A stretch of DNA of 64,000 bases from Candidatus Heimdallarchaeum aukensis (GCA_021513695.1 CP084166.1:160001-224000); one strand, 5' to 3'. Positions 5,975-56,818 are shown, counted from the stretch's first letter. Notes: generated by a model not told the origin, from the letters alone. Program-made: numbers and translations.

Positions 5975-7738
5975 GTGACAAATATGGAAAGGAAAATAAA
6001 AGAAGAAGTTGAAGAATTTCTGAATTTAGAACCGAAAGAACAAATAAGTATCGTTCAAAATCAATGCGAAGAAGTAATTTCACAAATAAAAGAAAAAAAT
6101 GTTGACTTGGAACATTTCATATACCAAGTAACAAAATTCAAAACTTTTTTTTCTCTTTTAAGTAAAGTAAGAAGGATTTATAGAAAAGAATACTTTGATC
6201 TTGTAGTTAATACATTAGCTAAACTTTGGTATGCTGTCGAAAAGTGCCAATCTCAAAAGTTGCTTTACCCTACTTTATCCGCTTTTACAGAAGTATTTTC
6301 CAAACTCAAAGGGTTAAATCCGTACTTTACTTTAGAAGCTTGTATAAATAAAACAATCTCATACAGTTTACTCCCCTCAATTGTAGAGTTAGAGATTCTT
6401 CTATCAAAAGAAAAGCAACATCTTCAATTTCTTCTTGACTATTTTCAGTTAGAATCAGTTTTAAAGCTAGTAGAAAAAGAAGAAGAAAAAATAACAATAA
6501 TACAATCAGCAACAAATTACATTCAAACACTAATTTTAACCTTATACAATTTCCTTTTTACTATTCCTAATCTGAAAAAAAAGGACTTTATTTCATGGTA
6601 TAAATTATTTGAAGAAGCGTTAAGCAAAGCTATCTCAACACATAAACTACTACTAAAACAAGAACTTTCAGAGATAAATAAATTTAGGACACTTCTATCT
6701 AAATCCTCACTCCATTCTATAAAAGCACAACTATTACTACTTTGGATAAAGTTTCTAAACGAAAAAAATGAAGAGAAGTTAAATCTAGCCTTAATGGAAA
6801 ACACACAGGCCATGCAAACAATCGAACACCTGCTCGATAATTCAATATATAAAGAAAATGTTAAACCCTATTATTTCCAGTATAAAACATTATTTTTGGA
6901 AACACGATTTTATCAGTTACTACATAATTTTGTAAAAAGCCAGTTTAGAAATGATTTACGTGTAGGAGATATAAAAGATGACAAAAAATCTTTATCTCTT
7001 AAAAATCTTAAATTCCAAGTAGATGAAATATTGAATGAAATATGGGAATACATAAGTGAAATACAAACAAAGGGAGACGACAGTATTATTGGAGTTTCCT
7101 CAAATATGATAAACACTTATGCAAAAGTATCTTATGGAGCTTACATTTACGAAATAAGAGAGAATATAGAGCAGATGGAACAAATAATAAAAACAAGAAG
7201 ATTGGATATTAGCGACCCTGAGCTATCTCTCATGTTAGGAAATTATTGGTTGATGAAATGGGGAGAAAATAACGAAAATAATCGAAAATATCTAGAATTA
7301 GCTGAATCTTATTTCACACGAGCAGCAGAAATTTATCAAATATTATTTAACAACAAAAAACTTCCAATATATGCATTTAGCATTTCAGGACTAATTTCGT
7401 TAAGACAAAATAATCCTCCGAAAGCAGAAGTCTTTTTCATGAAAGCAGATGATGTATTTAATGATGCTAAATATGCAGAAATATTAAATGAATCAGAGAT
7501 ACTATACTATACAAAATTTAGAGAGCAAATTGATAGAATATTGAACAATGAAAAAATAAAAAAACCATTAAGATTTAATAAACCTTTTAACCCACTAGAT
7601 TTCAACACATGGACAATAGAAAAAAAAGACTGGAGAAAAAAGTTTTCTTATATTGCAGAACCATTTCCATTTCATTTAACACAATTAAAAATACATGAGT
7701 TTGAATTTATGAGCCCAAGAAAGGAGAACGAAGAATGA
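5975..7738 (+). CDS. hypothetical alpha-helical protein (587 aa)
   Basis: Long uninterrupted ORF, K/E/L-rich; no recognisable motif. Confidence 0.4.
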   Translation: MTNMERKIKEEVEEFLNLEPKEQISIVQNQCEEVISQIKEKNVDLEHFIYQVTKFKTFFSLLSKVRRIYRKEYFDLVVNTLAKLWYAVEKCQSQKLLYPTLSAFTEVFSKLKGLNPYFTLEACINKTISYSLLPSIVELEILLSKEKQHLQFLLDYFQLESVLKLVEKEEEKITIIQSATNYIQTLILTLYNFLFTIPNLKKKDFISWYKLFEEALSKAISTHKLLLKQELSEINKFRTLLSKSSLHSIKAQLLLLWIKFLNEKNEEKLNLALMENTQAMQTIEHLLDNSIYKENVKPYYFQYKTLFLETRFYQLLHNFVKSQFRNDLRVGDIKDDKKSLSLKNLKFQVDEILNEIWEYISEIQTKGDDSIIGVSSNMINTYAKVSYGAYIYEIRENIEQMEQIIKTRRLDISDPELSLMLGNYWLMKWGENNENNRKYLELAESYFTRAAEIYQILFNNKKLPIYAFSISGLISLRQNNPPKAEVFFMKADDVFNDAKYAEILNESEILYYTKFREQIDRILNNEKIKKPLRFNKPFNPLDFNTWTIEKKDWRKKFSYIAEPFPFHLTQLKIHEFEFMSPRKENEE

Positions 7739-7920
7739 ATAAGCAACAAAAGCAAAAAAAATCTATATGGCTAAAAGAAAATTTTTTGCTTTTACTTGTT
7801 TCTCTAATTACTATTTTTTTAGGAATATTTTTATGGTTTAAGTATGATGAAGTTTATTATCTTATCTTTACCTTTGTTACAGTTTCTCTATTTATCTATT
7901 TCTTATACAAAAACCAATAA
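7735..7920 (+). CDS. small 2-TM membrane protein, translationally coupled (ATGA overlap) to the upstream gene
   Basis: Start codon overlaps the stop of the 587-aa gene; two hydrophobic helices. Confidence 0.3.
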   Translation: MNKQQKQKKSIWLKENFLLLLVSLITIFLGIFLWFKYDEVYYLIFTFVTVSLFIYFLYKNQ

Positions 7921-8216
7921 ATTTGACAACAATCATTTTGAGACTATTGAGTAATATATAAAATAAAAGAAGAAAATTGTTTATTCTTGTTTCATTCTTT
8001 TAATTCTTCCAAAGATAAGGAGTTCTAGTCTTGGAAAAAACAGCTTAACACTACCAACTTCAAATTATTCAACCATGAACATTTTTTGTTTTGCAAGAAT
8101 TAGCTCAATAGATCAGAATCTACTTGATTTTTTAGTTAACTCAATTTTTGTTCTAATGGTGGTACTTAAATTCAATTTTGTTCTCAAGAATATAGTGAAA
8201 AATAATAAGTAAATCT

Positions 8217-8732
8217 TTATTCTTTTGACTTTCTTACATTAAATGTCCATATTTCATTGAAAACATAATTGTTAATTACGGAAAGAATAAATGCGATACT
8301 TGTTGCGATAAAATCATTAATGCTTAAGACTGTTGCTAATAGATAGACAATACCTAAATTTACTACTGTTCCTGATGCTCCTACTATGCTAAATTTGATA
8401 AATTGTTTAAGTACATTTACTTCAATTCCTTCTTCTTTTTCTTTGAATGTCCATATTTTGTTTAGAATGAAATTATATATTGTAACAATTATTATTGCAA
8501 TAAATGTTGAAATAATTATTTTTTCTATTCTTATTTTTCCTATTGTGAATAATAGATCTTTTTCTATAATTTGATTAAGTATTTTGAGCATGACGAAAAT
8601 AATAAGTTCATTAATAGCTAAACCACCTATGCTGACTATAGCGAATCTTGTGAATCTTCTTTTAATTTGAGGGCTTAAGCTTTTTTTCTCCTTTTCAGGA
8701 TCGTTTTCCATTTCATTCATTTTGTTAATCAT
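8217..8732 (-). CDS. GtrA-like membrane protein (duplicated GtrA-type module)
   Basis: Two repeats of the GtrA-like signature ('FTRFAIVSIGGLAINELIIFV', 'IKFSIVGASGTVVNLGIVYLL'), each followed by a TM helix. Confidence 0.4.
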   Translation of the reverse strand: MINKMNEMENDPEKEKKSLSPQIKRRFTRFAIVSIGGLAINELIIFVMLKILNQIIEKDLLFTIGKIRIEKIIISTFIAIIIVTIYNFILNKIWTFKEKEEGIEVNVLKQFIKFSIVGASGTVVNLGIVYLLATVLSINDFIATSIAFILSVINNYVFNEIWTFNVRKSKE

Positions 8733-8743
8733 GTTCTAAACAA

Positions 8744-9199
8744 ATGCTTTTTAAATGCTTTTACGGAATTTTTTCTAAACAGTTATTGTTGAGAGGTTTA
8801 CATATGACTATTCACGTACAATATCTATCTCAAGTTATAGTTAGAATGAAGTTTGAAGGCGATTTTGATGACAAATTGATCGATGAATTAGATCGTTGTC
8901 TGGATGAACAGATAGGGAATACCCAAAAACAGTTATTCTACTTAATTGATCTATCAAGTTATGATAAAATTACTGCTAATAATGCTTCAACTGTTATTGC
9001 TGATAAACTAGCAGAGAGGGGAGATATTATAGCTAATGTTGCTTTTCTTGGTCAGAAAAAGATTAAGATCAAGAATAAAGACATTAAAGCTAAGTCTGAA
9101 GTTTTCACTAGTGATTTTAGTGCACAAAACTGGATCAGTGACAAGTCTCGTCATGGTTTCTTGGACCATATTTCTGTGAAATCACTTTTGGATAGGTAA
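8744..9199 (+). CDS. hypothetical protein (151 aa)
   Basis: ORF only. Confidence 0.3.
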   Translation: MLFKCFYGIFSKQLLLRGLHMTIHVQYLSQVIVRMKFEGDFDDKLIDELDRCLDEQIGNTQKQLFYLIDLSSYDKITANNASTVIADKLAERGDIIANVAFLGQKKIKIKNKDIKAKSEVFTSDFSAQNWISDKSRHGFLDHISVKSLLDR

Positions 9200-9208
9200 A
9201 GTAATTAC

Positions 9209-10174
9209 CTATTCTCCCAAATTTTTTCTCCAGTTGTAATCTTCTTTTGCTATCAGTGTAACAGCAGAATCTTCTTTTGAATCGATGATTTTTAATTCTG
9301 TATTTTCTATAATCTTCTTTGAAAATTCTAGTATTTTTGGGTACCTTGGCATTATTTCATAAGGTAACCTTTTTCTTGCGTCTCCAACACTCATAAAACC
9401 TTTTACTTCTAGAAAATGAGCTTCTGATCTTAAAAATAATTCAGCAAAAGCTTCTGGTTCGACTAAATTGTAGTTTTCATCTACTAAAGTTAATCTTATA
9501 ACTTTTCTAGTGTTAAGCGAAGGAAGTAATTCAATTGTTTCCATCACTTTGTTCCATAGATTTGAAAAAGAAGGACGAGCAGTTTTTTTGAAACTTTCTT
9601 CAGTAGGGGCAATTAGAGTAACATAGAGTTGAGTAGGAAGAGGGTCAAGTTTCTTCAACATTTCAGGATTAGTGCCATTAGTTACTAGAAAAGTAGTCAT
9701 ATCACGATTGTGGAACTCTTGAATTAATTCTGGTAACAAAGGATAGAAAGTTGGTTCTCCACTTAAAGAAATTGCAGCATGTTTTGGATTGTAAGCTTCT
9801 TCATATAATCTTGGTTCTACTTTTGGATGATTTTTGAATCCTGCAATTAGTCTTCTTTGATGTTCTATCATTTGATCAATAATATATTCCGGTTTGTCAA
9901 CTTTTCCTCTCATTAATTCTTTGTTGTACCATGATGCACTTCTCCAGCAAAAAACACATTTTAGATTACACCATATTGTTGCAGGAGTACATTGAAGACA
10001 ACGGTGAGAAGCTATTCCGTAAAATTGTTGTTTATAGCAAAAACCTTCTCCTTTTAACGCGTGCTTTAACCAGGTGCAAATTTTTACTGCAGAGTGATTA
10101 CCAGCTATTCTGTACTGTTGTTTTTCTAGTTTGTCTTTCAATTTTGGAGGAATAATGTTTGTATTTAAACTCAT
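9209..10174 (-). CDS. taw1: archaeal tRNA 4-demethylwyosine synthase Taw1 (radical SAM, TYW1 homologue), full-length copy
   Basis: Radical-SAM CxxxCxxC 'CNLKCVFCWR'; upstream auxiliary Cys cluster 'ICTWLK...GFCYKQQFYGIASHRCLQCTP', characteristic of TYW1/Taw1; ~320 aa as in archaeal Taw1. Confidence 0.7.
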   Translation of the reverse strand: MSLNTNIIPPKLKDKLEKQQYRIAGNHSAVKICTWLKHALKGEGFCYKQQFYGIASHRCLQCTPATIWCNLKCVFCWRSASWYNKELMRGKVDKPEYIIDQMIEHQRRLIAGFKNHPKVEPRLYEEAYNPKHAAISLSGEPTFYPLLPELIQEFHNRDMTTFLVTNGTNPEMLKKLDPLPTQLYVTLIAPTEESFKKTARPSFSNLWNKVMETIELLPSLNTRKVIRLTLVDENYNLVEPEAFAELFLRSEAHFLEVKGFMSVGDARKRLPYEIMPRYPKILEFSKKIIENTELKIIDSKEDSAVTLIAKEDYNWRKNLGE

Positions 10175-10301
10175 TAGATTTACTTATTTTTCTTTATTTT
10201 TAGACTTTATCTTTATTGAAATTTTTTTTGATTAAATTTACTATAAAATTAACAAAGGAAAACAATAGATTAAAATATTTAAAAAATTAAAATATACTGA
10301 T

Positions 10302-11417
10302 ATGGTTAGTATTAAAAAAGTTCTCAAGCAACTAGAAGATTCTGATCCTATAGTTCGAAGAGATGCAATACTTACTCTTGGAGAACTAAAAGACGAAAAA
10401 GGGGTTGATCCTTTAATTAAGTGTGTTCAACAAGAAATAAAAGAAAATAGAATCACCGCTATTGTTGCACTTTCAGATATTGGAGATCATAGGGCTATTG
10501 AAATATTAATCTACTGTTTAATGGATGATGATGAAGAAATAAGACTTGCTGCTGCTCGAGCTTTAGGACGATTTACTTCTCCTCAAGCTATCACTACTTT
10601 ACTTGTTTCATTAAAAAAAGACCCAAGTGTGAGAGTTAAGAGTCGTGCAGCTCTATCTTTAGGGAGTATTGGTTCAGAACTGCCTGTTGAAGAATTACTT
10701 AAAGAATCTAAATTAGAACACCCAACCACTCTTCTTTATTCTATAAATTCTGCTTTGACAATGATAGCAAAGAAAAATGGTTATAGTTCAGTAGATGAAC
10801 TTGTTCAAAAAATAAGGGCTAAAAAGGCAGAAGTAGATGAGAAAACACCAGAGCATAAACAAATTCAGGAGAAAGAAGAGCTCGAATCTTTTCCTCGTTT
10901 ATATGACTACATTAGAAAATATGTAGCTCGAGAACTAGAAGGGGTACAAACAGTATTAAGTATTAACTCAGATGAAAAGACTGCATCAAAGAAAATAGCT
11001 GATATTTTAGCAGAAAAATTCTGGAAATTTGCTGAATGGATCGGAAAAAGAATGGGACATAAATTAACTGAATATCAATCTGATTTGCTCTGGCAGATGA
11101 TATGGGATACATCAAGGCCAATTAGAAATGAAATTTACCAAATGATAAGAGATCATCGCTCAGAATTAGAGGAATTAAATCGATTCCAGAAATGGCTCAA
11201 CAAAATAGAAGAACAAAAAGAAGAAGAAATCGTTAAAGATATTGAAAGAAGCAGACCTAAACCCATTATTCAAACTTCAAATAATGTGAAAAAAGACGAA
11301 GCAGAGACAATTAGAGCTGCAGATTTGGCAAGAAGTATTTCTTCAAATCTTGAAGAAATAATGGGCAAATATTCTAGTTGGAAAACAAGAGAGTTAAAAG
11401 ATGAAGAAGATTATTAA
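10302..11417 (+). CDS. HEAT (PBS-lyase type) repeat protein, copy 1
   Basis: Repeated 'D..VRR.A...LG' HEAT units in the N-terminal third ('DSDPIVRRDAILTLGEL', 'DEEIRLAAARALGRF', 'DPSVRVKSRAALSLGSIG'). Confidence 0.55.
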   Translation: MVSIKKVLKQLEDSDPIVRRDAILTLGELKDEKGVDPLIKCVQQEIKENRITAIVALSDIGDHRAIEILIYCLMDDDEEIRLAAARALGRFTSPQAITTLLVSLKKDPSVRVKSRAALSLGSIGSELPVEELLKESKLEHPTTLLYSINSALTMIAKKNGYSSVDELVQKIRAKKAEVDEKTPEHKQIQEKEELESFPRLYDYIRKYVARELEGVQTVLSINSDEKTASKKIADILAEKFWKFAEWIGKRMGHKLTEYQSDLLWQMIWDTSRPIRNEIYQMIRDHRSELEELNRFQKWLNKIEEQKEEEIVKDIERSRPKPIIQTSNNVKKDEAETIRAADLARSISSNLEEIMGKYSSWKTRELKDEEDY

Positions 11418-11569
11418 GCTTCTTTAAAATTCTGAAAATTGCCAAAAAAATTTTTCTAAAACAATTTTTTATTATTTATTAATTTTCGTAATACCTTGCT
11501 AATACTAAATCCTTCACGACAAAAACATATTTATTTCTGTTTACAATTGTGATATAGTAGATATCTAAG

Positions 11570-11779
11570 ATGGAATATGGGGTTAATATGAAAAAAAAGC
11601 TGATTACATTTAAAGTAACAGAAGCTATGATGAAATGGATAGCAGAAATGATGGAAAAGGGGAATTATAAAAATAGAACAGAATTAATTGTAGATGCTCT
11701 TAGAGAGTTTCTCATCCAAGAAAGAATGGTTGAAGATCAGGAAGAACTAGAAGCAATTTTTGAAAGAATTGATGAATAG
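11570..11779 (+). CDS. ribbon-helix-helix (CopG/Arc/MetJ-like) small DNA-binding protein, copy 1
   Basis: 69 aa; beta-strand 'KLITFKVTEAM' followed by two helices ending 'NRTELIVDALREFL', the typical RHH pattern. Confidence 0.5.
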   Translation: MEYGVNMKKKLITFKVTEAMMKWIAEMMEKGNYKNRTELIVDALREFLIQERMVEDQEELEAIFERIDE

Positions 11780-11821
11780 TTCTCTTATAACTCCTTCTGT
11801 ATTTCTGTTATTTTAGCCCTA

Positions 11822-12628
11822 TTATTCAAACCAATACATAGATGTTTTTTCGAAACATTCTTTTGTTAAATTTTGTGAAAGCTTAAAATAATTAGTAACT
11901 TTTTTATCTATCCTTTTTCTGAAAATCACTGCTTGATTAAAATCTCTATCTGATTTTATCCAGTTTTTTGTAATTTCTTTCATTGTTACCCAGATATCAG
12001 AGGAAGGAAAAGGGATTGGTATCTCTCTAAAAAGGTTTGAAGTTATGTCTCTTACAATAAAACTTTCTACTATAAATTGAACAAATGAGGAGGAAAGATA
12101 ACCAAACAACCCATAAAGGTCTATTTGTTCATCAGGAATTATGATGTCAAAAATGTCGTTTACGTAATAGCCTTCTAGGTCCAAACCAATAAAATACTTC
12201 TTTCCTCTATTTCTACGGACTATTTTTGGTTTTTCAAATATTTGATGATCTCCTGGTGCTCCTAATACTTTTCTGTCATAAATTATTTTTTCTTTTCCTG
12301 GAAAAACTTCAAAGTTTATGACACCTTCTTTGTAATTATTTGAAAAGATATTGTGTCTTACTATTTCTACAGATTTAATTTCATTTGAATATTTCTTTTT
12401 TTTAATATACTTCTCTTTGTATCTCTTTGTTATCGTTAATCCTCGTCTAATAAAAGAATGTTCTTTTAATTTAGGGTAATTATTCAGGATAGTGCTGATT
12501 TCCTTTTGACTTTCAGAACTAAAATTTGAAAAAAGAAAAAGAGGAGGGAAAATGAAGCTATAGTCTATTTTGTGTTCATGATTATCTTTTCTTTTATGAA
12601 ATTTAATGTAATTACTTTCGTTTTTTAA
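11822..12628 (-). pseudogene. 3' fragment (C-terminal ~269 codons) of the N6-adenine DNA methyltransferase gene, created by the tandem duplication
   Basis: Identical by eye to 15170-15976, the C-terminal part of the 663-aa MTase. It lacks the N-terminal catalytic motifs and any upstream start. The ORF track reports only the last 120 codons, from an internal TTG. Confidence 0.7.
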
Positions 12629-13524
12629 AAATCGATGATTTTTAATTCTGTATTTTCTATAATCTTCTTTGAAAATTCTAGTATTTTTGGGTACCTTGGC
12701 ATTATTTCATAAGGTAACCTTTTTCTTGCGTCTCCAACACTCATAAAACCTTTTACTTCTAGAAAATGAGCTTCTGATCTTAAAAATAATTCAGCAAAAG
12801 CTTCTGGTTCGACTAAATTGTAGTTTTCATCTACTAAAGTTAATCTTATAACTTTTCTAGTGTTAAGCGAAGGAAGTAATTCAATTGTTTCCATCACTTT
12901 GTTCCATAGATTTGAAAAAGAAGGACGAGCAGTTTTTTTGAAACTTTCTTCAGTAGGGGCAATTAGAGTAACATAGAGTTGAGTAGGAAGAGGGTCAAGT
13001 TTCTTCAACATTTCAGGATTAGTGCCATTAGTTACTAGAAAAGTAGTCATATCACGATTGTGGAACTCTTGAATTAATTCTGGTAACAAAGGATAGAAAG
13101 TTGGTTCTCCACTTAAAGAAATTGCAGCATGTTTTGGATTGTAAGCTTCTTCATATAATCTTGGTTCTACTTTTGGATGATTTTTGAATCCTGCAATTAG
13201 TCTTCTTTGATGTTCTATCATTTGATCAATAATATATTCCGGTTTGTCAACTTTTCCTCTCATTAATTCTTTGTTGTACCATGATGCACTTCTCCAGCAA
13301 AAAACACATTTTAGATTACACCATATTGTTGCAGGAGTACATTGAAGACAACGGTGAGAAGCTATTCCGTAAAATTGTTGTTTATAGCAAAAACCTTCTC
13401 CTTTTAACGCGTGCTTTAACCAGGTGCAAATTTTTACTGCAGAGTGATTACCAGCTATTCTGTACTGTTGTTTTTCTAGTTTGTCTTTCAATTTTGGAGG
13501 AATAATGTTTGTATTTAAACTCAT
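12625..13524 (-). CDS. taw1: Taw1 copy 2, 3'-truncated by the duplication junction (C-terminal ~24 aa replaced by 'F' then stop)
   Basis: Identical to 9283-10174 over its length. The protein ends '...LKIIDF' instead of '...LKIIDSKEDSAVTLIAKEDYNWRKNLGE'. Confidence 0.6.
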   Translation of the reverse strand: MSLNTNIIPPKLKDKLEKQQYRIAGNHSAVKICTWLKHALKGEGFCYKQQFYGIASHRCLQCTPATIWCNLKCVFCWRSASWYNKELMRGKVDKPEYIIDQMIEHQRRLIAGFKNHPKVEPRLYEEAYNPKHAAISLSGEPTFYPLLPELIQEFHNRDMTTFLVTNGTNPEMLKKLDPLPTQLYVTLIAPTEESFKKTARPSFSNLWNKVMETIELLPSLNTRKVIRLTLVDENYNLVEPEAFAELFLRSEAHFLEVKGFMSVGDARKRLPYEIMPRYPKILEFSKKIIENTELKIIDF

Positions 13525-13649
13525 TAGATTTACTTATTTTCTTTATTTTTAGACTTTATCTTTATTGAAATTTTTTTGATTAAATTTACTATAAAATTAA
13601 CAAAGGAAAACAATAGATTAAAATATTTAAAAAATTAAAATATACTGAT

Positions 13650-14765
13650 ATGGTTAGTATTAAAAAAGTTCTCAAGCAACTAGAAGATTCTGATCCTATA
13701 GTTCGAAGAGATGCAATACTTACTCTTGGAGAACTAAAAGACGAAAAAGGGGTTGATCCTTTAATTAAGTGTGTTCAACAAGAAATAAAAGAAAATAGAA
13801 TCACCGCTATTGTTGCACTTTCAGATATTGGAGATCATAGGGCTATTGAAATATTAATCTACTGTTTAATGGATGATGATGAAGAAATAAGACTTGCTGC
13901 TGCTCGAGCTTTAGGACGATTTACTTCTCCTCAAGCTATCACTACTTTACTTGTTTCATTAAAAAAAGACCCAAGTGTGAGAGTTAAGAGTCGTGCAGCT
14001 CTATCTTTAGGGAGTATTGGTTCAGAACTGCCTGTTGAAGAATTACTTAAAGAATCTAAATTAGAACACCCAACCACTCTTCTTTATTCTATAAATTCTG
14101 CTTTGACAATGATAGCAAAGAAAAATGGTTATAGTTCAGTAGATGAACTTGTTCAAAAAATAAGGGCTAAAAAGGCAGAAGTAGATGAGAAAACACCAGA
14201 GCATAAACAAATTCAGGAGAAAGAAGAGCTCGAATCTTTTCCTCGTTTATATGACTACATTAGAAAATATGTAGCTCGAGAACTAGAAGGGGTACAAACA
14301 GTATTAAGTATTAACTCAGATGAAAAGACTGCATCAAAGAAAATAGCTGATATTTTAGCAGAAAAATTCTGGAAATTTGCTGAATGGATCGGAAAAAGAA
14401 TGGGACATAAATTAACTGAATATCAATCTGATTTGCTCTGGCAGATGATATGGGATACATCAAGGCCAATTAGAAATGAAATTTACCAAATGATAAGAGA
14501 TCATCGCTCAGAATTAGAGGAATTAAATCGATTCCAGAAATGGCTCAACAAAATAGAAGAACAAAAAGAAGAAGAAATCGTTAAAGATATTGAAAGAAGC
14601 AGACCTAAACCCATTATTCAAACTTCAAATAATGTGAAAAAAGACGAAGCAGAGACAATTAGAGCTGCAGATTTGGCAAGAAGTATTTCTTCAAATCTTG
14701 AAGAAATAATGGGCAAATATTCTAGTTGGAAAACAAGAGAGTTAAAAGATGAAGAAGATTATTAA
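13650..14765 (+). CDS. HEAT repeat protein, copy 2 (identical to 10302-11417)
   Basis: The 371-aa translation is identical to copy 1. Confidence 0.55.
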   Translation: MVSIKKVLKQLEDSDPIVRRDAILTLGELKDEKGVDPLIKCVQQEIKENRITAIVALSDIGDHRAIEILIYCLMDDDEEIRLAAARALGRFTSPQAITTLLVSLKKDPSVRVKSRAALSLGSIGSELPVEELLKESKLEHPTTLLYSINSALTMIAKKNGYSSVDELVQKIRAKKAEVDEKTPEHKQIQEKEELESFPRLYDYIRKYVARELEGVQTVLSINSDEKTASKKIADILAEKFWKFAEWIGKRMGHKLTEYQSDLLWQMIWDTSRPIRNEIYQMIRDHRSELEELNRFQKWLNKIEEQKEEEIVKDIERSRPKPIIQTSNNVKKDEAETIRAADLARSISSNLEEIMGKYSSWKTRELKDEEDY

Positions 14766-14917
14766 GCTTCTTTAAAATTCTGAAAATTGCCAAAAAAATT
14801 TTTCTAAAACAATTTTTTATTATTTATTAATTTTCGTAATACCTTGCTAATACTAAATCCTTCACGACAAAAACATATTTATTTCTGTTTACAATTGTGA
14901 TATAGTAGATATCTAAG

Positions 14918-15127
14918 ATGGAATATGGGGTTAATATGAAAAAAAAGCTGATTACATTTAAAGTAACAGAAGCTATGATGAAATGGATAGCAGAAATGAT
15001 GGAAAAGGGGAATTATAAAAATAGAACAGAATTAATTGTAGATGCTCTTAGAGAGTTTCTCATCCAAGAAAGAATGGTTGAAGATCAGGAAGAACTAGAA
15101 GCAATTTTTGAAAGAATTGATGAATAG
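14918..15127 (+). CDS. RHH small DNA-binding protein, copy 2
   Basis: Identical to 11570-11779; convergent with, and 42 bp from, the 3' end of the MTase gene. Confidence 0.5.
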   Translation: MEYGVNMKKKLITFKVTEAMMKWIAEMMEKGNYKNRTELIVDALREFLIQERMVEDQEELEAIFERIDE

Positions 15128-15169
15128 TTCTCTTATAACTCCTTCTGTATTTCTGTTATTTTAGCCCTA

Positions 15170-17161
15170 TTATTCAAACCAATACATAGATGTTTTTTCG
15201 AAACATTCTTTTGTTAAATTTTGTGAAAGCTTAAAATAATTAGTAACTTTTTTATCTATCCTTTTTCTGAAAATCACTGCTTGATTAAAATCTCTATCTG
15301 ATTTTATCCAGTTTTTTGTAATTTCTTTCATTGTTACCCAGATATCAGAGGAAGGAAAAGGGATTGGTATCTCTCTAAAAAGGTTTGAAGTTATGTCTCT
15401 TACAATAAAACTTTCTACTATAAATTGAACAAATGAGGAGGAAAGATAACCAAACAACCCATAAAGGTCTATTTGTTCATCAGGAATTATGATGTCAAAA
15501 ATGTCGTTTACGTAATAGCCTTCTAGGTCCAAACCAATAAAATACTTCTTTCCTCTATTTCTACGGACTATTTTTGGTTTTTCAAATATTTGATGATCTC
15601 CTGGTGCTCCTAATACTTTTCTGTCATAAATTATTTTTTCTTTTCCTGGAAAAACTTCAAAGTTTATGACACCTTCTTTGTAATTATTTGAAAAGATATT
15701 GTGTCTTACTATTTCTACAGATTTAATTTCATTTGAATATTTCTTTTTTTTAATATACTTCTCTTTGTATCTCTTTGTTATCGTTAATCCTCGTCTAATA
15801 AAAGAATGTTCTTTTAATTTAGGGTAATTATTCAGGATAGTGCTGATTTCCTTTTGACTTTCAGAACTAAAATTTGAAAAAAGAAAAAGAGGAGGGAAAA
15901 TGAAGCTATAGTCTATTTTGTGTTCATGATTATCTTTTCTTTTATGAAATTTAATGTAATTACTTTCGTTTTTTAAATCCATTGATAACAAAAAGAATTC
16001 ATTGGAAACGTCTTTAAAGGAATAATCTAAATCTGTGTAAATTTCTACATCATATCTATTATCTTTGAGGTGTTTTCTCCATTTCTTGCCATAAGTATCA
16101 GTTATGATACCTGAAGGTAATATTAATCCTACTTTCTCTTTGGATAAACTTTCTGCAATGATCAAAAAAGGTAGAGCAAAATTATATTTTCCAAAGATTC
16201 TATTTTTATAAGGTTCTCTCTTTAAGAATTCTTTATATCTATTATTTATTTTTTTATATTCTATCCACGGTGGATTTCCAATAACAAAATCAAAAAATTT
16301 TTTCTGAAGACTTAAACTTTCATCAAAAAATATTTCAGGCAAATCAACAAAAAAGCTAAATTTGGATAGAGAAGGATATTTCTTCGATATTTCATCTCTT
16401 TTTGTTAAACATTCTTTTATATCTTGAAAAGAAATTTCTTTTTTACCAAATATCACTTCTCTTCTTTTTTCACGAAGTATCGCTAAAAGTTTCAAAAAAG
16501 TTGTATTTTTTCTTTCTGACATTTGCTTTATTATTCTTTCATCATAACCAAGAATGCTATCTCCGTATTTTGAGATTAAAGGAAGTAATTTTCTTTTTCT
16601 ATTATCTTGTAACATGAAAAAGAGTTTGAAAACTTGAAATTCATAAATAAATGGATCAACTTCAACTGAATATGGCATAATCTCTTGTTTTTCAAAAGCT
16701 GGGTAGAGAAAATCTCCTATTCCTGAAGAAATATCGATAACTGTTTTAGTTTTTTTAGAATTGTTACTCAAAATATCTAATAAATCATATACCTTTTTAA
16801 CAAGAATCCTATTAGTAAAATATTGACCTGTTAATCTCGTTTTATCTTGAATAAGTGATAAAATATTAACTTCATTTATTGTCTTGATTATATTTTTGAT
16901 TTGTTCAAAAACCCAAACTGGTAACTTTTTTTCTAGAACTCTGAGTTTTTCTAACGATAGAAGTATTTGCTTATCATCTTGATTTAGATTAACCAGATTT
17001 ATTAACGAAGTTTTTTGTTGATTTTGTTCAGATGAAAAGGATGAAGAATTGTAAATAAAGTAAAACTTTACTATCATCGATTTTAATTCATTAACTGAAA
17101 CTTTGTACCTACTAGCCTTTTTCTGAATTCTACTATGTAGATTTTCCTCTTTTATTTCCAT
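15170..17161 (-). CDS. gamma-class N6-adenine DNA methyltransferase with a large C-terminal target-recognition region (no nuclease domain seen)
   Basis: Motif X 'GQYFTNRILV'; motif I 'VIDISSGIGDFL'; motif IV 'FVIGNPPWIEY' (NPPW). The order X-I-IV indicates gamma class; ~360 aa follow motif IV. Confidence 0.75.
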   Translation of the reverse strand: MEIKEENLHSRIQKKASRYKVSVNELKSMIVKFYFIYNSSSFSSEQNQQKTSLINLVNLNQDDKQILLSLEKLRVLEKKLPVWVFEQIKNIIKTINEVNILSLIQDKTRLTGQYFTNRILVKKVYDLLDILSNNSKKTKTVIDISSGIGDFLYPAFEKQEIMPYSVEVDPFIYEFQVFKLFFMLQDNRKRKLLPLISKYGDSILGYDERIIKQMSERKNTTFLKLLAILREKRREVIFGKKEISFQDIKECLTKRDEISKKYPSLSKFSFFVDLPEIFFDESLSLQKKFFDFVIGNPPWIEYKKINNRYKEFLKREPYKNRIFGKYNFALPFLIIAESLSKEKVGLILPSGIITDTYGKKWRKHLKDNRYDVEIYTDLDYSFKDVSNEFFLLSMDLKNESNYIKFHKRKDNHEHKIDYSFIFPPLFLFSNFSSESQKEISTILNNYPKLKEHSFIRRGLTITKRYKEKYIKKKKYSNEIKSVEIVRHNIFSNNYKEGVINFEVFPGKEKIIYDRKVLGAPGDHQIFEKPKIVRRNRGKKYFIGLDLEGYYVNDIFDIIIPDEQIDLYGLFGYLSSSFVQFIVESFIVRDITSNLFREIPIPFPSSDIWVTMKEITKNWIKSDRDFNQAVIFRKRIDKKVTNYFKLSQNLTKECFEKTSMYWFE

Positions 17162-17243: not shown

Positions 17244-19307
17244 ATGTCTCATATATTGAAGCAAAATGTAAAGATACCCAAAGAAATACTCCCATTCTAT
17301 AAATTATTTAATGATTATGAGAAAGAACAATTTCAAAAATTGTCATCTTTAAACCAAATGTCTAATTTAAATGAAATAGGTACATTATTGTTAGATATCT
17401 TTAATAAAGAAATTGAACACACTTCATATTTTATGCTTGCTCTTGGCAGAATATTATATCATACTTCAGATATGTTAAATCTTGAAAATATCTATAAAGA
17501 AACCGATTCTGCTGAAATAGGGTTATGGTACGCTTTCTTGAGAATTATTAGTTCAGACGATGTACGAAAGGAAGAAATTCTATTAGATCAACTGAAAGAA
17601 AAACTAAATTATTCCTTATTGCACCTTCTTTGGACTATTGTTGAGCTTAATTTTTATGTATATTCAGGAAATCAATTTAATTTTAGAGAAACTAAAGATA
17701 TTATAATTAATCGTTTTTTAGTTGAAGATATCGAAAATAGAGAAAAACATAAAGTGATTTTCAAGCTTTTTTATTCATATATTTTAATTATAGAAATAAA
17801 TTTGAATTTTCTACAGAATCACATTTCATATGCTAAAGACCTACTTATCCATGCTTCTGATATTATAGTTACTTTAGAAGATAGGATTTTAGAGTCGATG
17901 CAACTTAGATTATCTGCATTAATTGAGTTAAGAAAAAACAACTTTTCAACAGCTCAACATCTATTTTTACGTTCTCTTGCTCTCGCAGATATGTTAAAAG
18001 AAATAAGATTTGCAATACAAGTTAATTCAGAAATTGGAGACCTATATCTACAGATGGGCCATGTTAAAGATGCAAAATTGTTTTACGATAAATCACTAGA
18101 GCTTTTAAAAAAGCATGTACCTTATGATTCTTCATTGCAAGGCATTCTACTTTCTAAGATTGCTGATTACTATTTTGTGAATGAAAAGTTTCAAAAGTCT
18201 CTAGATTTGCTTGATGAAGCTCTTTCATTCTTTAAAGTAGATAATAATTTTTCATTTCAGATCAAACTCAAATACATTGAATATCTTTTAAATTTGAAAA
18301 AAGTTAATAAAGCAGAATCTTTGTTGGTTTCAAGTTTTCAAAAGAAAGACAATTATCTTTATTTGCAGAATCAGAGTTTTTGCCTGTATTTAAGAGGATT
18401 TATTGAATTTCTTAAGAAGAATTTTGGTAAAGCCCAGTCTTTCCTCTATGAGGCAATAGGGATTGCAGATAGAACAGGAGATGAATGGACCAGTTCAAAA
18501 TCTTTAGTTCTTCTTTTAATTTTGCTTCTTCTAAAGTATAACTTAGCTTCAAAAGTAGACGATATAGTAGAAGCAGACAAGTGTGTAGATGATATAATTA
18601 CATTTTTAGAAGAAAAAGCGAAGTTTAAAGAACTTGCTCAGATATATCTAATTCGAGCTAAGATAAGAAAAATACTTCTCGACTTTGAGACTTCACTTTT
18701 TTTACTGAAAACAGGAGAAAATATAGCTAGACAGTATTATCCTGAACTTATTACTAAATATGAAGAAAATATTGATGAGATTTCTAGACTCTTAAATTTT
18801 GAAAACATTGCAGAGACAGAAACACCCTCCATAGATTTCAAGGAAGATATTGACACAATTTTTCAAATTCTTATCAGACAGACTAAAAAACTTGGTTCTC
18901 CAATAGAAAGTATTACAATAGCCGTACTTATTTTTCATTCAAGCGGTATACCAGTTCGGACTTATCGTTCTGAAGAGCTCTATATTAGTGATGATATGAT
19001 CTTTGGTGGTTTTGTGTCAGCAATAAGACATCTGCTTGATGAATTGTTCTATTCCCAAGAATCAAAGTCTTTAAGTGTTGATCATGGACAGTACAAGCTT
19101 CTAATTGAGTTTTACAAGAATTTATTTTCTATTGTTATTCTTACTGTTCGAGATAGCTTCTTGTTACGCAGAAAGATGCATCAATTAGTTAGTTTTGTAG
19201 CTTCAAAGGATCTGTTCAAAGAGAAATATTTTGGTAAAATTGATGAACTTGCTTTGAGAGACATTGATTCATTTGTTGAGAAGTTGTTTAAAGTCAAAAA
19301 GAATTAG
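17244..19307 (+). CDS. TPR-like helical repeat protein with a C-terminal Roadblock/LC7-like domain (paralogue A)
   Basis: N-terminal amphipathic helical repeats. The C-terminal ~130 aa share motifs with the next gene: 'SGIPVRTY', 'MIFGGFVSAIRHLLDELF', 'FSIVILTVRDSFLLRRKMHQLV'. Confidence 0.45.
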   Translation: MSHILKQNVKIPKEILPFYKLFNDYEKEQFQKLSSLNQMSNLNEIGTLLLDIFNKEIEHTSYFMLALGRILYHTSDMLNLENIYKETDSAEIGLWYAFLRIISSDDVRKEEILLDQLKEKLNYSLLHLLWTIVELNFYVYSGNQFNFRETKDIIINRFLVEDIENREKHKVIFKLFYSYILIIEINLNFLQNHISYAKDLLIHASDIIVTLEDRILESMQLRLSALIELRKNNFSTAQHLFLRSLALADMLKEIRFAIQVNSEIGDLYLQMGHVKDAKLFYDKSLELLKKHVPYDSSLQGILLSKIADYYFVNEKFQKSLDLLDEALSFFKVDNNFSFQIKLKYIEYLLNLKKVNKAESLLVSSFQKKDNYLYLQNQSFCLYLRGFIEFLKKNFGKAQSFLYEAIGIADRTGDEWTSSKSLVLLLILLLLKYNLASKVDDIVEADKCVDDIITFLEEKAKFKELAQIYLIRAKIRKILLDFETSLFLLKTGENIARQYYPELITKYEENIDEISRLLNFENIAETETPSIDFKEDIDTIFQILIRQTKKLGSPIESITIAVLIFHSSGIPVRTYRSEELYISDDMIFGGFVSAIRHLLDELFYSQESKSLSVDHGQYKLLIEFYKNLFSIVILTVRDSFLLRRKMHQLVSFVASKDLFKEKYFGKIDELALRDIDSFVEKLFKVKKN

Positions 19308-19389: not shown

Positions 19390-21474
19390 ATGTCAGTAGT
19401 ATACAGTTTCCCTAGGGAATATAGTCATTATATCCCTCTTTTCACTAGAGAAGAACAAGATTTGATTAACAACTTTTCATCAAAAGTTAATAAAGATACT
19501 TCAATGGGAATCTTGAAAGATATCCTTTTAGATATTTTAGATAATCTTTCTTCCCCTTCTCTCTATTTCTTATACTCACTAGGTAAAGTTTTATTCATTT
19601 CTAGTAATTATAATCTACTTGAAGAACTCAATAAGAAATATAAAAGTGAGAGTTTAGAGCTGTGGTGGGGAAATGCTCTAATAAGGCGAACTGAGAATGA
19701 TAAAGTAATTAATCTCGCTTTGAAAATACTCAACAAGAATCCTGAAGAAAAAATAATTAGATTACATTGTTATGCCCTTTTAGCTAATGCATATGCAAAT
19801 ATGGAAAGTGAAAATCAATATAGACATTATATGCAAGAACTCTATCATGAGTCAATTATCTTTCATAGAGATTTAGATAAAGAAAAAATTGTAATAAATG
19901 ATATCCTTCTTTTTGCACATGCTATTGACATTTGGAAAGAGAGAATATCTGCACCTCTTTTAAAACTTGAAAACAAAATTGATGTAGCTTTTCAAATTGC
20001 AAAAGAACTAGGAGATCGTTATCACCTTGGAAGGTTGTACAACATAAGAGGAGTAATTTACAGATATGTAGGAAGAATCTCTGATTCATTTGAATTTATA
20101 AATAAGGCTATAAATTATTATAAAGCAGTTGGAGCTAGGAGAGGAGTAGCAGCAGCAAAAGCAAATCTTGCAACAATTTATACAATTAAAAATGAACTAG
20201 ATAAAGCCGAGAAATTACTAAAAGAGTCTCTCTCAATTTTTTTGGAAGTAGGTGATTACAAAAATCAATCCTTAATTCACTCTTCTTTAGGTGAAATTGC
20301 TATTGCTAAAGGAGATTATCACTCTGCTTTAGAATTGTATGAAGAATCTGTAAGTATATTGGAGCAAATAAACGCACACGAACTACAAGTTTATTGCTCT
20401 TTAGGCGAATTATATTATTTCTTAGGAAATAAAGAAAAAATGAAAATAATAATGAAATTCCTGCAAGAGACAGACAAAAAGAAAGAAGGATTCGTCTATG
20501 GATATTATAATTTGTTTAAAGCTCTTTTAGAAATTGATAACATGAATTATGGTAAAGCAAATGAATACTTGGAAAAAGCTTTGTCTATAAGTGATACAAG
20601 AGGAACAGGATTTTTCTCTGCAAAAATACTTCTTCAACTGTCATTGATCAACATAAAGCAATATGATTCTTTTCAAGAAAAGGAGTATTTAGAAAAAGCA
20701 AAACAGTACATAAATGATTTAGAACCATTTTATGAAGAGTTGAATAAAACAATTGAACATGTAATAATTCTATTGGTTCTTTCAAAAATATATGCAGTAA
20801 TGGAAGAATATACGAAGTCTTTTAACATTTTACAAAAAGCAAAAGATCGTCTTAATTTGTCAAAGAAAGAAAGAAAAAAGGATAAATATTACCACTTAAT
20901 AGAAAATAGAATTAAAGAACTTGAAGAAATCTTTTCAAAAGCCAAAACCGAAACATCATTCCAAAATGAAACTTTTCAATATGAAATTAAAGAAATGGAA
21001 AGTATAAGCATTAGACAAATATCAGAATATGAAAAAGAATTAAGAACTTCAATATTGGCACTTTTAATAGTACATCCTTCAGGAATACCTTTAATGAATT
21101 ATACGCTCAAGAGGTCTAGTCAATTTAGAGATGAACTAATGTTTGGAGGTTTTATTGTAGCTGTAAAAGACATGATAGAAGAGTTATTCTCTAATCCAAT
21201 GCAGAGTAAAGTAATGGTCATTAGCTATGGTAATAATAAGATAATAATGGAGCACAGTCCAAAGAGAAATTTTAGTGTAATTATTTTATCATCAAAGGAT
21301 AGTTTTATTCTACGAAGAAAAATTCATCGATTAACTCAAAATCTACAAGATATAGAGCTCCCGCAACAGTATATTGGAGAATTGACCCCTAAAACAGCTT
21401 CAAGAATAAATGAAGAAGTAAAAAATGTTTTTGGAGAAAACTTAATGCTATATGAAGGTGCTGTTCATATTTAG
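19390..21474 (+). CDS. TPR repeat protein with a C-terminal Roadblock/LC7-like domain (paralogue B)
   Basis: TPR-like units ('YHLGRLYNIRGVIY', 'AAAKANLATIYTIKNELDKAEKLLKESLSIF', 'SLIHSSLGEIAIAKGDYHSALELYEESV'). C-terminus: 'SGIPLMNY', 'LMFGGFIVAVKDMIEELF', 'FSVIILSSKDSFILRRKIHRLT'. Confidence 0.5.
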   Translation: MSVVYSFPREYSHYIPLFTREEQDLINNFSSKVNKDTSMGILKDILLDILDNLSSPSLYFLYSLGKVLFISSNYNLLEELNKKYKSESLELWWGNALIRRTENDKVINLALKILNKNPEEKIIRLHCYALLANAYANMESENQYRHYMQELYHESIIFHRDLDKEKIVINDILLFAHAIDIWKERISAPLLKLENKIDVAFQIAKELGDRYHLGRLYNIRGVIYRYVGRISDSFEFINKAINYYKAVGARRGVAAAKANLATIYTIKNELDKAEKLLKESLSIFLEVGDYKNQSLIHSSLGEIAIAKGDYHSALELYEESVSILEQINAHELQVYCSLGELYYFLGNKEKMKIIMKFLQETDKKKEGFVYGYYNLFKALLEIDNMNYGKANEYLEKALSISDTRGTGFFSAKILLQLSLINIKQYDSFQEKEYLEKAKQYINDLEPFYEELNKTIEHVIILLVLSKIYAVMEEYTKSFNILQKAKDRLNLSKKERKKDKYYHLIENRIKELEEIFSKAKTETSFQNETFQYEIKEMESISIRQISEYEKELRTSILALLIVHPSGIPLMNYTLKRSSQFRDELMFGGFIVAVKDMIEELFSNPMQSKVMVISYGNNKIIMEHSPKRNFSVIILSSKDSFILRRKIHRLTQNLQDIELPQQYIGELTPKTASRINEEVKNVFGENLMLYEGAVHI

Positions 21475-36928: not shown

Positions 36929-38404
36929 TTAACTTAACGATTTTTTTCTCATTTTCTCTATATATTCTTGACTATAACCAAACAAAATAAACTTTCTAGA
37001 ATTTTCAAAAGTGATTTTCACTGAAATTTCTTGTTCATTATCTAAAAATATTTCAGGTAGTAGCATGTTTGATTTTATATTTTCAATTTTTATTATAGGT
37101 ATAGATTTTAGAACTCTGTCTTTTGTTGTTAATACAAATAAATGTTCATCAACAATTGTCCATTTTGCTACATATTCTTTTTTTACGACCTCATTTATTG
37201 AATTTATATAGATATCATCGAAGAAAACTTGTTCTGTTTTTATTATTGCTTCTATTATGAAACTGGTCAGTAGGTAGAGAACTATAAACCAATAAACATA
37301 ATTTTCATCCCAAAAATGAATAACAAATAAAACCATTGAAACAATTAAGAACGCAAAATTACCCAGAAATTGAAGAAAATATTTGTGTGCCTTTTTTAAT
37401 CCCTCTTTTACCTTCGTTTTCTGTTTATAAGCAGTAAAATGCTTAAAATTTAGATATTTTTCATAATCGTTTTCATAATCTTTAAAGAAAAAAGGTTGAA
37501 AGATTTTTTTCCATTTAACTACTCTTGCAGGAATTTTGTAAAACATTTCTTCTTCATTACCAAATGATATTTTAGATGAAATCCAATTTTTAGGTAGATC
37601 TTCTTTTTCTTTTACTCTTAAGAAAACATTTTTTATTTCTCTTTTCATTTTTACTTTTTCTCTTAATTTTACTATTTTAAAATATGAAAAAATTAGTATA
37701 ATTGAGAAAAAAGTACTAAGTACAGTAAGTGTGAAAGTTGTATAATATGCAGTTTTCAGACTTATATTATTGTTAAAAGCAATATAGAGCGAGGGTAATG
37801 TTAGGGCCAACATAAACAAAATCCCTATTGCTTGAATATTGTTTTCTAATCTAAAATTCTGATTTCTAGTTCTCCTAATAGATTTCTTTAACAAATAAGA
37901 TAGTAATTTAAAGGCTTTGTAGTATGCTAAAAAGAAGAAAGTAGGAAAAAGTACAAACATACATATATACAACCATATTGAAAATATAGAAGGTTGTGTG
38001 TAATCTTCTGTTCTAAGAAATGAGCTGAAAATAAGAAAGCTAAGTAAAGTTGAGAAACCTAAAACAAATATGTTAGGAAAAATAAAAGTCCAAATCGCAA
38101 ATGATTCCATTATTAACTTCCTTGAATCAACGATTTGATTCAAAGGATATAAATCAGAAAGAGGATCTTGAATGCTTTTATCATCTGTTTCATTCTTGAA
38201 ATAGTAGCCCTCAAATATTATTTCTTTCTGATTCTTTGATTTCCAATTAACAAAATCTATTATTAGTTCTCTTTGGTTATTGGAAATATCTTTGGTATGG
38301 ATGTTGTAATCTTCAATTTCTCCTTTTTTTCTAAAATAATCAGTTTTAATCCTGACAGATTTTTTATTTCTTGAAATATATTTTTCTTTATTTGTTACCT
38401 TCAT
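36929..38404 (-). CDS. polytopic membrane protein with a C-terminal PH-like (bPH/YdbT-type) domain
   Basis: ~95-aa soluble N-terminus, then at least six hydrophobic helices, then a C-terminal beta-rich ~80 aa ('LFVLTTKDRVLKSIPIIKIENI...ISVKITFENSRKFILFGYSQEYIEKM'). Starts 4 bp after the helicase stop. Confidence 0.45.
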   Translation of the reverse strand: MKVTNKEKYISRNKKSVRIKTDYFRKKGEIEDYNIHTKDISNNQRELIIDFVNWKSKNQKEIIFEGYYFKNETDDKSIQDPLSDLYPLNQIVDSRKLIMESFAIWTFIFPNIFVLGFSTLLSFLIFSSFLRTEDYTQPSIFSIWLYICMFVLFPTFFFLAYYKAFKLLSYLLKKSIRRTRNQNFRLENNIQAIGILFMLALTLPSLYIAFNNNISLKTAYYTTFTLTVLSTFFSIILIFSYFKIVKLREKVKMKREIKNVFLRVKEKEDLPKNWISSKISFGNEEEMFYKIPARVVKWKKIFQPFFFKDYENDYEKYLNFKHFTAYKQKTKVKEGLKKAHKYFLQFLGNFAFLIVSMVLFVIHFWDENYVYWFIVLYLLTSFIIEAIIKTEQVFFDDIYINSINEVVKKEYVAKWTIVDEHLFVLTTKDRVLKSIPIIKIENIKSNMLLPEIFLDNEQEISVKITFENSRKFILFGYSQEYIEKMRKKSLS

Positions 38405-55393: not shown

Positions 55394-56818
55394 TTATTTA
55401 GCAGGTTTTAGTGAAGCACCACATTTTATGCAAAATGAACTGTCTCCTGGGTTCTTAGCCTCACAGAAAGGACAGATAATTTCTTTATCTTTTGCTGGAG
55501 AACTTACAGAAAGAATCTCGTCAAACTCTGATGAACTTTTATTAACCGATAGAGGTTGATGGGTTGGAAAAGTCGCTTTTCTCGTAGAATATTCATGTTT
55601 AACCTTTTTAGCTTGTTCTGATTTTTGTATTCCAGGAATGAAAACAATGTCATTTTTCACATCATAAGCTATATTTGCAAGTCCTAAATTAATTATCTTC
55701 CAGATGTCTTGATGCACAACTTTGTATGGGGAGTTAAGTATTTTTGTTAGATCTCGAATATATATTGCTCCGTAACCTTGAACTATCTGGATAAGTTTTT
55801 CTCTCCTGTTCCTTGAATTATACATTACAATTGCAGTAATGATAGCTAGTATAATTGGCATTGCAAAAATGTTCCAAAAAGTAGCTGTAAAGCAACCAAT
55901 CAAGAAGAAGAATACTGACAGTAATATAAGAACTCTTTCGGTAATATCTGTTTGGTCATATTGATAATGTAATTTATTTATGAATTTGTTTTTGCTAACG
56001 TAAGTTTTTGGTGATTTAGCAACAATAAAGTTCTCAGAGATATTTGCTAATGCAGGTATGTACCTTGTTTTTCTATCAACTGCTTCAGTTATAGTAGATG
56101 GAGTTACTCTTGCTGAAGGCTTTGTTTTGTCGTTTGAACTAGATATATCTTTTTCTGCTCTAGAAACTGGTGCGCTAGAGGGTTTACTAGTCTCTTTTTC
56201 ACTGTGTTTACTGGGCCTTGAATAATAGTAACTTTCTCGTCTAGCACTTCTATCATAGCCCTTTCGTTCATCATATTTCGAAGCTCCTCCTGTAATTGGT
56301 ACTATAAATATATTCTTGATTAGGTATCCAATTGTGTGTAGAAACAACAATAACAAGAAGAAACCATCTATTACCCCGAAAATGAATGCTGAAATAACAA
56401 AAGCTCTTGGTATACTTACCATAATATAATATATAGAAATTGTAAAGTCATTTTCATTGACTAAGTATATTGCAGCATCATTATTATCATTTCCGAATAT
56501 TATTTCGCTATGTTTCTTATTTTTTACAGCATCATATTGATCAATATTTGAATATATGTCTTCAATATAATTCTCTATATGATATGTTGTTACTTTTACA
56601 TCTTCACCTGCATTTACATAATATTGAATGAAGTGGTAATATGAACTGTCTAATTCTAGAATTGTGTAATTGCCAGGATCAAGTGTAATTGTAGTCTCAT
56701 TATAATTTGTGTTTAATCCTCCAATCGTTACTACAATTCCAAGAGGTATTGTAGCGATTGCAATGAATACGATGGATGTTACTGCTAATCCGTTCAAATA
56801 TTTTGCGTGATTACCCAT
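55394..56818 (-). CDS. membrane protein with a C-terminal Zn ribbon
   Basis: N-terminal TM, central TM pair, Ser/Lys-rich linker, C-terminal 'CPFCEAKNPGDSSFCIKCG'. Confidence 0.4.
   Translation of the reverse strand: MGNHAKYLNGLAVTSIVFIAIATIPLGIVVTIGGLNTNYNETTITLDPGNYTILELDSSYYHFIQYYVNAGEDVKVTTYHIENYIEDIYSNIDQYDAVKNKKHSEIIFGNDNNDAAIYLVNENDFTISIYYIMVSIPRAFVISAFIFGVIDGFFLLLLFLHTIGYLIKNIFIVPITGGASKYDERKGYDRSARRESYYYSRPSKHSEKETSKPSSAPVSRAEKDISSSNDKTKPSARVTPSTITEAVDRKTRYIPALANISENFIVAKSPKTYVSKNKFINKLHYQYDQTDITERVLILLSVFFFLIGCFTATFWNIFAMPIILAIITAIVMYNSRNRREKLIQIVQGYGAIYIRDLTKILNSPYKVVHQDIWKIINLGLANIAYDVKNDIVFIPGIQKSEQAKKVKHEYSTRKATFPTHQPLSVNKSSSEFDEILSVSSPAKDKEIICPFCEAKNPGDSSFCIKCGASLKPAK

Follow-up and report, generated by a model that had tools for sequence, protein, structure and literature searches.

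What happened near position 9280 of the stretch of DNA presented above, 64,000 nt of Candidatus (Ca.) Heimdallarchaeum aukensis (CP084166.1:160001-224000), which we call the window and number from its first letter? Two units of about 3.35 kb stand there head-to-tail, joining the 3' part of taw1, the gene for a radical-SAM 4-demethylwyosine synthase, to the middle of a DNA methyltransferase gene, and each unit also carries a HEAT-repeat gene and a ribbon-helix-helix (RHH) gene. Such a pattern can be a duplication in the chromosome or a mistake in assembling it. We think it probable that this is a genuine, very young tandem duplication carried by a substantial share of the Heimdallarchaeon chromosomes. 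The evidence for this comes from assemblies made directly from raw reads and from relatives that carry the unit once.

Structure and junction of the duplication

Gapped self-alignment places copy A at 9280-12629 (3350 nt) and the adjacent copy B at 12630-15977 (3348 nt), in the same orientation, with 0 substitutions between them and two 1-nt deletions in copy B. The initial annotation had described two adjacent units of about 3.35 kb that join the taw1 3' part to the middle of the methyltransferase, and that structure holds, with unit lengths corrected to 3350 and 3348. Its coordinates, 9281-12628 and 12629-15976, are one base off, and the identity it called perfect is broken by the two deletions. 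Its fixed period of 3348 gives 679 mismatches because the period changes along the repeat, and that comparison was dropped in favor of the gapped one. A repeat finder likewise follows the register as it drifts from 3350 to 3349 to 3348 along the two copies. The first difference is a run of 5 T (T5) at 10187-10191 in copy A versus T4 at 13537-13540 in copy B, and the second is T8 at 10222-10229 versus T7 at 13571-13577. Both deletions lie between the divergent genes taw1 and HEAT, with 31 nt separating them, within 13537-13577 of copy B. Besides the 3.35-kb pair, the 64-kb window contains no other long repeat.

The novel junction lies at 12616-12643, with TTTCGTTTTTTAAA to the left of the break between 12629 and 12630 and AATCGATGATTTTT to its right. 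Written more widely, it is CGTTTTTTAAA followed by AATCGATGAT, and the sequence across the join reads CTTTCGTTTTTTAAAAATCGATGATTTTTA. The 28-mer at the junction occurs once in the window. At the left boundary, copy A is preceded by G whereas the unit itself ends with A; at the right boundary, copy B is followed by T whereas the unit opens with A. Because the bases differ at both boundaries, the join is blunt with 0 nt of microhomology, in place of the 1-3 nt that had been read there. The junction has neither a target-site duplication nor terminal inverted repeats. Of the two breakpoints, the left one interrupts taw1 at codon 299 and the right one the methyltransferase gene at codon 395; they share 0 nt of identity, which speaks against an origin mediated by homology or microhomology. 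Weaker resemblance of the two sites was also considered and rejected. When similarity within +/-20 nt of the breakpoints was compared with that of random pairs at equal spacing, the pair TCTTCTTTTGAATCGA-TGAT and TCGTTTTTTAAATCCATTGAT scored 10, a score equaled by about 10% of the random pairs and hence not significant.

The junction in assemblies made from raw reads

A way to ask whether the join exists outside the finished assembly is provided by the Logan collection, in which public raw runs were assembled directly as de Bruijn graphs with k = 31. The HEAT-repeat protein of the window differs by 5 residues from that of its 99% relative L001 (described below), so an exact look-up with it selects the window's own strain. 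Two contigs were returned, SRR15988954_11202 (3350 nt) and SRR15988958_3459 (3254 nt). The first is 100% identical to window positions 9280-12629, which is copy A from its first base to its last. From the same run, the left-flank contig SRR15988954_4408 (21.5 kb) is 100% identical to the window over 9309 nt and ends at 9309, which is 30 nt (k-1) inside the unit, and the right-flank contig SRR15988954_5275 begins at 15948 and so includes the last 30 nt of the unit. In the second run, SRR15988958_3459 covers 9280-12533 and so begins at the unit start, and the left-flank contig SRR15988958_1194 again ends at 9309, stopping 30 nt inside the unit. Since 17 kb of flanks are 100% identical to SRR15988954 contigs, the window derives from that read set.

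In a compacted graph, a contig stops in this manner only where its terminal (k-1)-mer has a second neighbor. As the breaks with k-1 overlaps have survived tip clipping and bubble popping, both boundary 30-mers must have a second neighbor that is connected to the rest of the graph. Two more trivial causes were considered and rejected: a single-base variant would give a bubble that rejoins, whereas upstream the left contig is unbroken; an error branch leading nowhere would have been removed by clipping. An edge from unit end to unit start is the only parsimonious candidate for the second neighbor at both ends. The junction is in this sense present in the raw reads indirectly, by way of contig ends at 9309, 9280, 12629, and 15948.

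The two runs differ in character. SRR15988954 agrees with the window at every base over 20 kb and is Illumina-like. Over the 2.7 kb of window positions 6576-9309, SRR15988958_1194 shows 4 deletions in homopolymers without a single mismatch, leaving a GtrA-like gene frameshifted, and from these deletions the run looks Nanopore-like. Its unit contig, in contrast, is error-free over 3.25 kb (9280-12533) despite 18 runs of at least 6 nt, a difference that might reflect higher depth of the unit.

Single-copy relatives and the age of the duplication

Exact look-up of the 321-aa Taw1 led to five metagenome contigs of the Joint Genome Institute (JGI). One of them, Ga0366834_1006968 (22 kb; L001), is 98.8-99.4% identical to the window and carries one unit without interruption, in the order TPR genes, methyltransferase, RHH, HEAT, Taw1, left flank. 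At a greater distance, the nearest genome, Ca. H. endolithica PR6 (CP084167.1), is syntenic with one unit, at about 85-88% nucleotide identity; its Taw1 is 93% identical and most of its proteins are 85-94% identical to those of the window. PR6 and Ca. H. aukensis PM71 have been reported to share 88% average nucleotide identity and 90% average amino acid identity (PMC8813620), values with which those of the window agree. The comparison with related genomes that the initial annotation had proposed therefore finds one unit between the same flanks in both L001 and PR6, and from these relatives the ancestral state is the single copy.

A three-way alignment of L001 with copies A and B gives the age more closely. 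There are 37 substitutions between L001 and the window, and all 37 are common to both copies, so the duplication postdates this 1.1% strain split by a wide margin. The very recent event that had been suggested at the outset is well borne out: the duplication has gained no substitutions since it arose. L001 and a second environmental contig of the 99% strain, Ga0366832_1005416 (L002), both carry T5/T8, the same as copy A.

The differences from L001 are not evenly spread over the unit. The HEAT gene (10302-11417 and 13650-14765) has 29 nucleotide and 5 amino acid differences in 1116 nt, Taw1 has 7 differences, all of them synonymous, and the RHH gene and the 3' part of the methyltransferase have none. 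From the sequence, the HEAT-gene cluster looks like the result either of import by recombination or of faster local evolution of the gene; diversifying selection does not explain it, most of the changes being synonymous. L002, from a second environmental assembly, ends inside the HEAT gene and not at a unit boundary, which fits this variant-rich gene as a break point for short-read assemblers. A scan of metagenome contigs with the HEAT protein found two distant loci (58-62% identity) on short contigs, which permit no comparison of copy number.

Are the two deletions in copy B real?

The T4/T7 state is derived and unique to copy B, and whether it represents real divergence or consensus error is about an even matter. 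On the side of error, both Logan unit contigs carry T5/T8, and the deletions sit where short-read polishing is blind, with reads mapping best to the perfect copy A. One of the deletions is in a T(n)CT context, like 3 of the 4 errors in the Nanopore-like contig, and the two fall within 41 nt of each other although the unit has 46 runs of at least 5 nt. On the side of real deletions, homopolymer slippage is fast, and the taw1-HEAT intergenic length varies between species, PR6 having T6 at the first site.

Weighing the origin of the junction

The window is most probably from the PM71 genome, which was assembled by metaSPAdes from one Illumina paired-end (PE150) library of unamplified DNA, scaffolded in two rounds of LRScaf with Nanopore reads from DNA amplified by multiple displacement amplification (MDA), and polished by Pilon at 346x (PMC8813620). 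Several points weigh against a duplication present in a substantial share of chromosomes. The above route of metaSPAdes and LRScaf with MDA Nanopore reads is prone to structural errors. The junction is read from graph topology rather than seen within a read, and two fixed copies, a duplicated minority, a higher amplification, and a unit circle beside a single-copy chromosome all give a de Bruijn graph of the same topology. The junction 28-mer is absent from the JGI metagenome contigs scanned. Exact look-up finds the truncated Taw1 (299 aa) of copy B on record in no public assembly and returns no record of the full 663-aa methyltransferase, a result that says little by itself and is explained by graph contigs that break inside both genes. 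We also infer, from its Illumina-like character, that SRR15988954 is the unamplified library, just as the assignment of the window to PM71 is a deduction of ours.

How far do these points reach? If overlapping contigs had been concatenated or one contig placed twice, no molecule would contain the junction, and such a history would suit the scaffolding route with its short Nanopore reads from MDA-amplified DNA, the near-identity of the copies, the blunt junction, and the fact that the only differences are homopolymer deletions like those in the Nanopore-like run. Against this, the raw-read assemblies break at the four predicted positions with k-1 overlaps, implying an extra edge at both unit ends, and since they are independent of scaffolding, a join made by the scaffolder is rejected. 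No independent assembly runs straight through the boundaries, as concatenation would predict; there are breaks at both. Moreover, the flank-unit transitions are seamless, with no duplicated k-mer overlaps, and the 64 kb contain no other such repeat. The assembly artefact that the initial annotation had kept as an alternative is therefore very unlikely. A chimeric molecule formed early in MDA or polymerase chain reaction and grown abundant enough to enter the graph is harder still to credit. MDA was used for the Nanopore libraries and does make chimeras, although these are mostly inverted and random, unlike one clean head-to-tail join common to different libraries. In addition, the Illumina library was from unamplified DNA (PMC8813620), and the Illumina-like run breaks at both ends. 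Least credible as an origin is the integration, beside a resident copy, of a mobile or episomal element, for instance a small RHH plasmid or a transposable unit. The unit does encode a CopG-family RHH protein, of a family common on small plasmids, and a unit circle would give the same graph as a tandem duplication. Both ends, however, lie inside conserved chromosomal genes that are intact and contiguous in the single-copy relatives, which effectively refutes this origin. Such an element would also be marked by a recombinase or transposase, by terminal inverted repeats, or by a target-site duplication; none of these was found, nor was any tRNA gene in the 64-kb window.

Two further readings accept the junction as real. 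In one, most cells or chromosome copies have a single unit, a subpopulation has the duplication, a higher amplification, or transient excised circles, and one traversal of the loop set the consensus. The graph indeed demonstrates the existence of the junction edge and says nothing of its abundance; instability and heterogeneity in copy number are typical of tandem amplifications (PMC11721125); and T5/T8 alone in both Logan unit contigs is as expected if copy B with its T4/T7 does not really exist at equal abundance. On the other hand, rare noise would not have survived Logan error removal in two runs as the edge did, the two copies in the assembly can be told apart, and a unit circle would have no obvious replication function and would end inside genes. 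We hold a minority junction to be unlikely. The other reading is a copy-number change that was selected and rose during the months-long ethane/sulfate enrichment, with a benefit from HEAT and RHH dosage and with the T-run deletions as early regulatory divergence. Nothing suggests why doubling of HEAT and RHH would be selected, and we consider this decidedly improbable.

For the young tandem duplication that we favor, the blunt join, the lack of flanking repeats or insertion sequences, and the position of the breakpoints in two unrelated genes indicate an illegitimate event. One homology-independent join, by unequal end joining of sister chromosomes or by a template switch in replication, would link methyltransferase codon 395 to taw1 codon 299, 3350 bp apart, and the product would be left flank, unit, unit, right flank. 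Two 3.35-kb repeats should then recombine with each other, making the structure unstable and allowing copy number to vary between cells, as established knowledge of bacterial duplications leads one to expect. As the initial annotation had suggested, an unstable amplification may differ between cells. Bacterial amplifications of 7-13 kb have been described with join points that have no homology or microhomology only, and with instability and copy-number heterogeneity (PMC11721125).

Genes of the unit and effects of the duplication

Copy A has the full-length taw1 (9209-10174, minus strand; 321 aa), which matches TIGR03972 over its full length (E = 1.6e-113; 378.8 bits versus a curated cutoff of 317.95) along with PF04055 and PF08608, identifying it as a TYW1/Taw1 protein. 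It aligns with the Pyrococcus horikoshii structure PDB 2YX0 through residue 313. Divergently encoded is the HEAT-repeat protein (10302-11417, plus strand; 371 aa; PF13646, 3.6e-26), followed by the RHH protein of the CopG family (11570-11779, plus strand; 69 aa; PF01402, 5.4e-05). Copy A closes with the methyltransferase 3' fragment (11822-12629, minus strand), which encodes residues 396-663 and has a TaqI_C-like specificity domain and no catalytic domain.

In copy B, taw1 (12625-13524, minus strand) is truncated to 298 native residues plus F and a stop. It stops one codon past the junction, and a fusion protein therefore does not arise. The last 23 residues are missing, among them the conserved terminal segment SAVTLIAKEDY, which in the full-length protein aligns to 2YX0, and the truncated protein scores 369.2 bits against TIGR03972, covering only positions 3-285 of the 297-position profile. 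The HEAT-repeat protein (13650-14765, plus strand) and the RHH protein (14918-15127, plus strand) are identical to those in copy A. The methyltransferase is here full length (15170-17161, minus strand), spanning copy B plus the right flank, and is a 663-aa N6-adenine DNA methyltransferase of the Eco57I type and gamma class (PF07669, 3.3e-14; PF12950, 1.6e-08; PADLOC MTase_II), with motif I DISSGIGDF, motif IV NPPW at 296, and the TaqI_C domain at 510-593.

These profile matches bear out the gene identities first proposed (Taw1, HEAT, RHH, and N6-adenine methyltransferase). The gene content assigned to the two copies is also right, a full Taw1 and a methyltransferase fragment in copy A and a truncated Taw1 and the full 663-aa methyltransferase with copy B. 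The sizes of the two partial genes needed small changes: that Taw1 is truncated and that the fragment is C-terminal were both right, and the loss is 23 residues (not ~24) and the fragment 268 full codons (not ~269).

As for consequences, the sequence keeps all four original genes intact somewhere in the structure, and no gene function is lost. The methyltransferase fragment has no promoter of its own, and about 230 codons of its frame pass without an ATG or GTG, the first possible start being a TTG at 12184; it is probably a silent pseudogene fragment that is not expressed. The truncated taw1 paralogue in copy B retains its promoter. The only intact genes with changed dosage are HEAT and RHH, both of which are doubled as had been expected, each gene being intact and identical in the two copies.

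The methyltransferase and its surroundings

It had been suggested that the methyltransferase fragment could serve as a substrate for recombination of target-recognition domains. Since the fragment does not differ from the resident 3' end, recombination could only collapse or expand the array, and the target-recognition region is about 90% identical to that of PR6, making it the best-conserved part of a protein whose N-terminal 400 residues are 46-76% identical. On both grounds, the suggestion falls, and a locus for domain shuffling or for switching specificity is rejected. A defense or restriction-modification context is rejected as well. The PADLOC matches near the gene are to a generic type II methylase and to TPR/HEAT proteins only, no nuclease partner was found there, and the methyltransferase appears to be solitary.

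Compared with PR6, the methyltransferase (15170-17161) is the fastest-diverging gene of the locus, with 71% amino acid identity versus 85-94% for its neighbors. Most of this divergence lies within the N-terminal 100 residues and around residues 401-450, and not in the TaqI_C specificity domain. Transcribed divergently from it are two adjoining TPR paralogues (17244-19307 and 19390-21474, plus strand; 687 and 694 aa), which have about 27% identity to each other by tblastn against PR6 and are 88-91% conserved in that genome.

The wider window

The wider window encodes a class II (D/K/N-type) aminoacyl-tRNA synthetase, pyruvate:ferredoxin oxidoreductase, ATP sulfurylase/APS kinase, and NiFe hydrogenase, and is ordinary chromosomal context rather than a mobile island. 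At 38409-41393 (minus strand), there is encoded a 994-aa protein with an N-terminal RING finger (zf-RING_2, 4.8e-06, just under the Pfam cutoff) and a ResIII/DEAD-type helicase core, an architecture resembling that of eukaryotic RING-plus-helicase repair proteins. Four proteins have no Pfam match. At E <= 0.01, these are at 5975-7738 (plus strand; 587 aa) and 8744-9199 (plus strand; 151 aa), which also have no NCBIfam match and are 87-91% conserved in PR6; at E <= 1e-5, they are at 36929-38404 (minus strand; 491 aa) and 55394-56818 (minus strand; 474 aa).

Meaning and comparison with known systems

For genome curation, the truncated taw1 and the partial methyltransferase gene are by-products of the duplication and not independent genes, and HEAT and RHH are counted twice. 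The locus is also one small data point for tandem duplication without homology in Heimdallarchaeia, and for its ability to rise to a detectable frequency in an enrichment. If the two-copy state were fixed and the copy-specific indels real, the locus would be one of the rare natural cases in which a duplication is seen newly born, here in an Asgard archaeon. If the copy-number change were in addition a selected one, it would be a homology-independent gene duplication caught in the act, in the archaeal lineage closest to eukaryotes.

Among known systems, the nearest by organism are the abundant repeats described for Ca. Heimdallarchaeum by Wu et al. 2022 (PMC8813620), in the same genus and probably the same genome. 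As presented in the passages on repeats, those comprise non-tandem repeats associated with transposases and integrases, CRISPR arrays, and tandem repeats within genes, and none of these passages concerns this multi-gene tandem duplication; in the main text, "duplicat" occurs once and "methyltransferase" never. False assembly duplications, which arise when a scaffolder joins overlapping contigs end to end or when haplotypes are left uncollapsed, are alike in having near-identical adjoining copies and a blunt junction in a hybrid of short-read assembly and scaffolder, and are unlike the present case in that here raw-read assemblies break at the unit boundaries and the flank-unit joins are seamless. 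The closest likeness in structure is to the duplication-amplifications of Salmonella, E. coli, Acinetobacter, and Staphylococcus (PMC11721125), which share the head-to-tail repeat of a few kilobases, the one novel join without homology, the retention of the original genes with an extra truncated gene at the junction, the near-identical copies, and the expected instability. What differs is the host, here an uncultured Asgard archaeon in an enrichment, with no evident selective agent or dosage-sensitive gene. By this comparison, the locus is an ordinary tandem segmental duplication in an unusual host, and it calls for no new mechanism.

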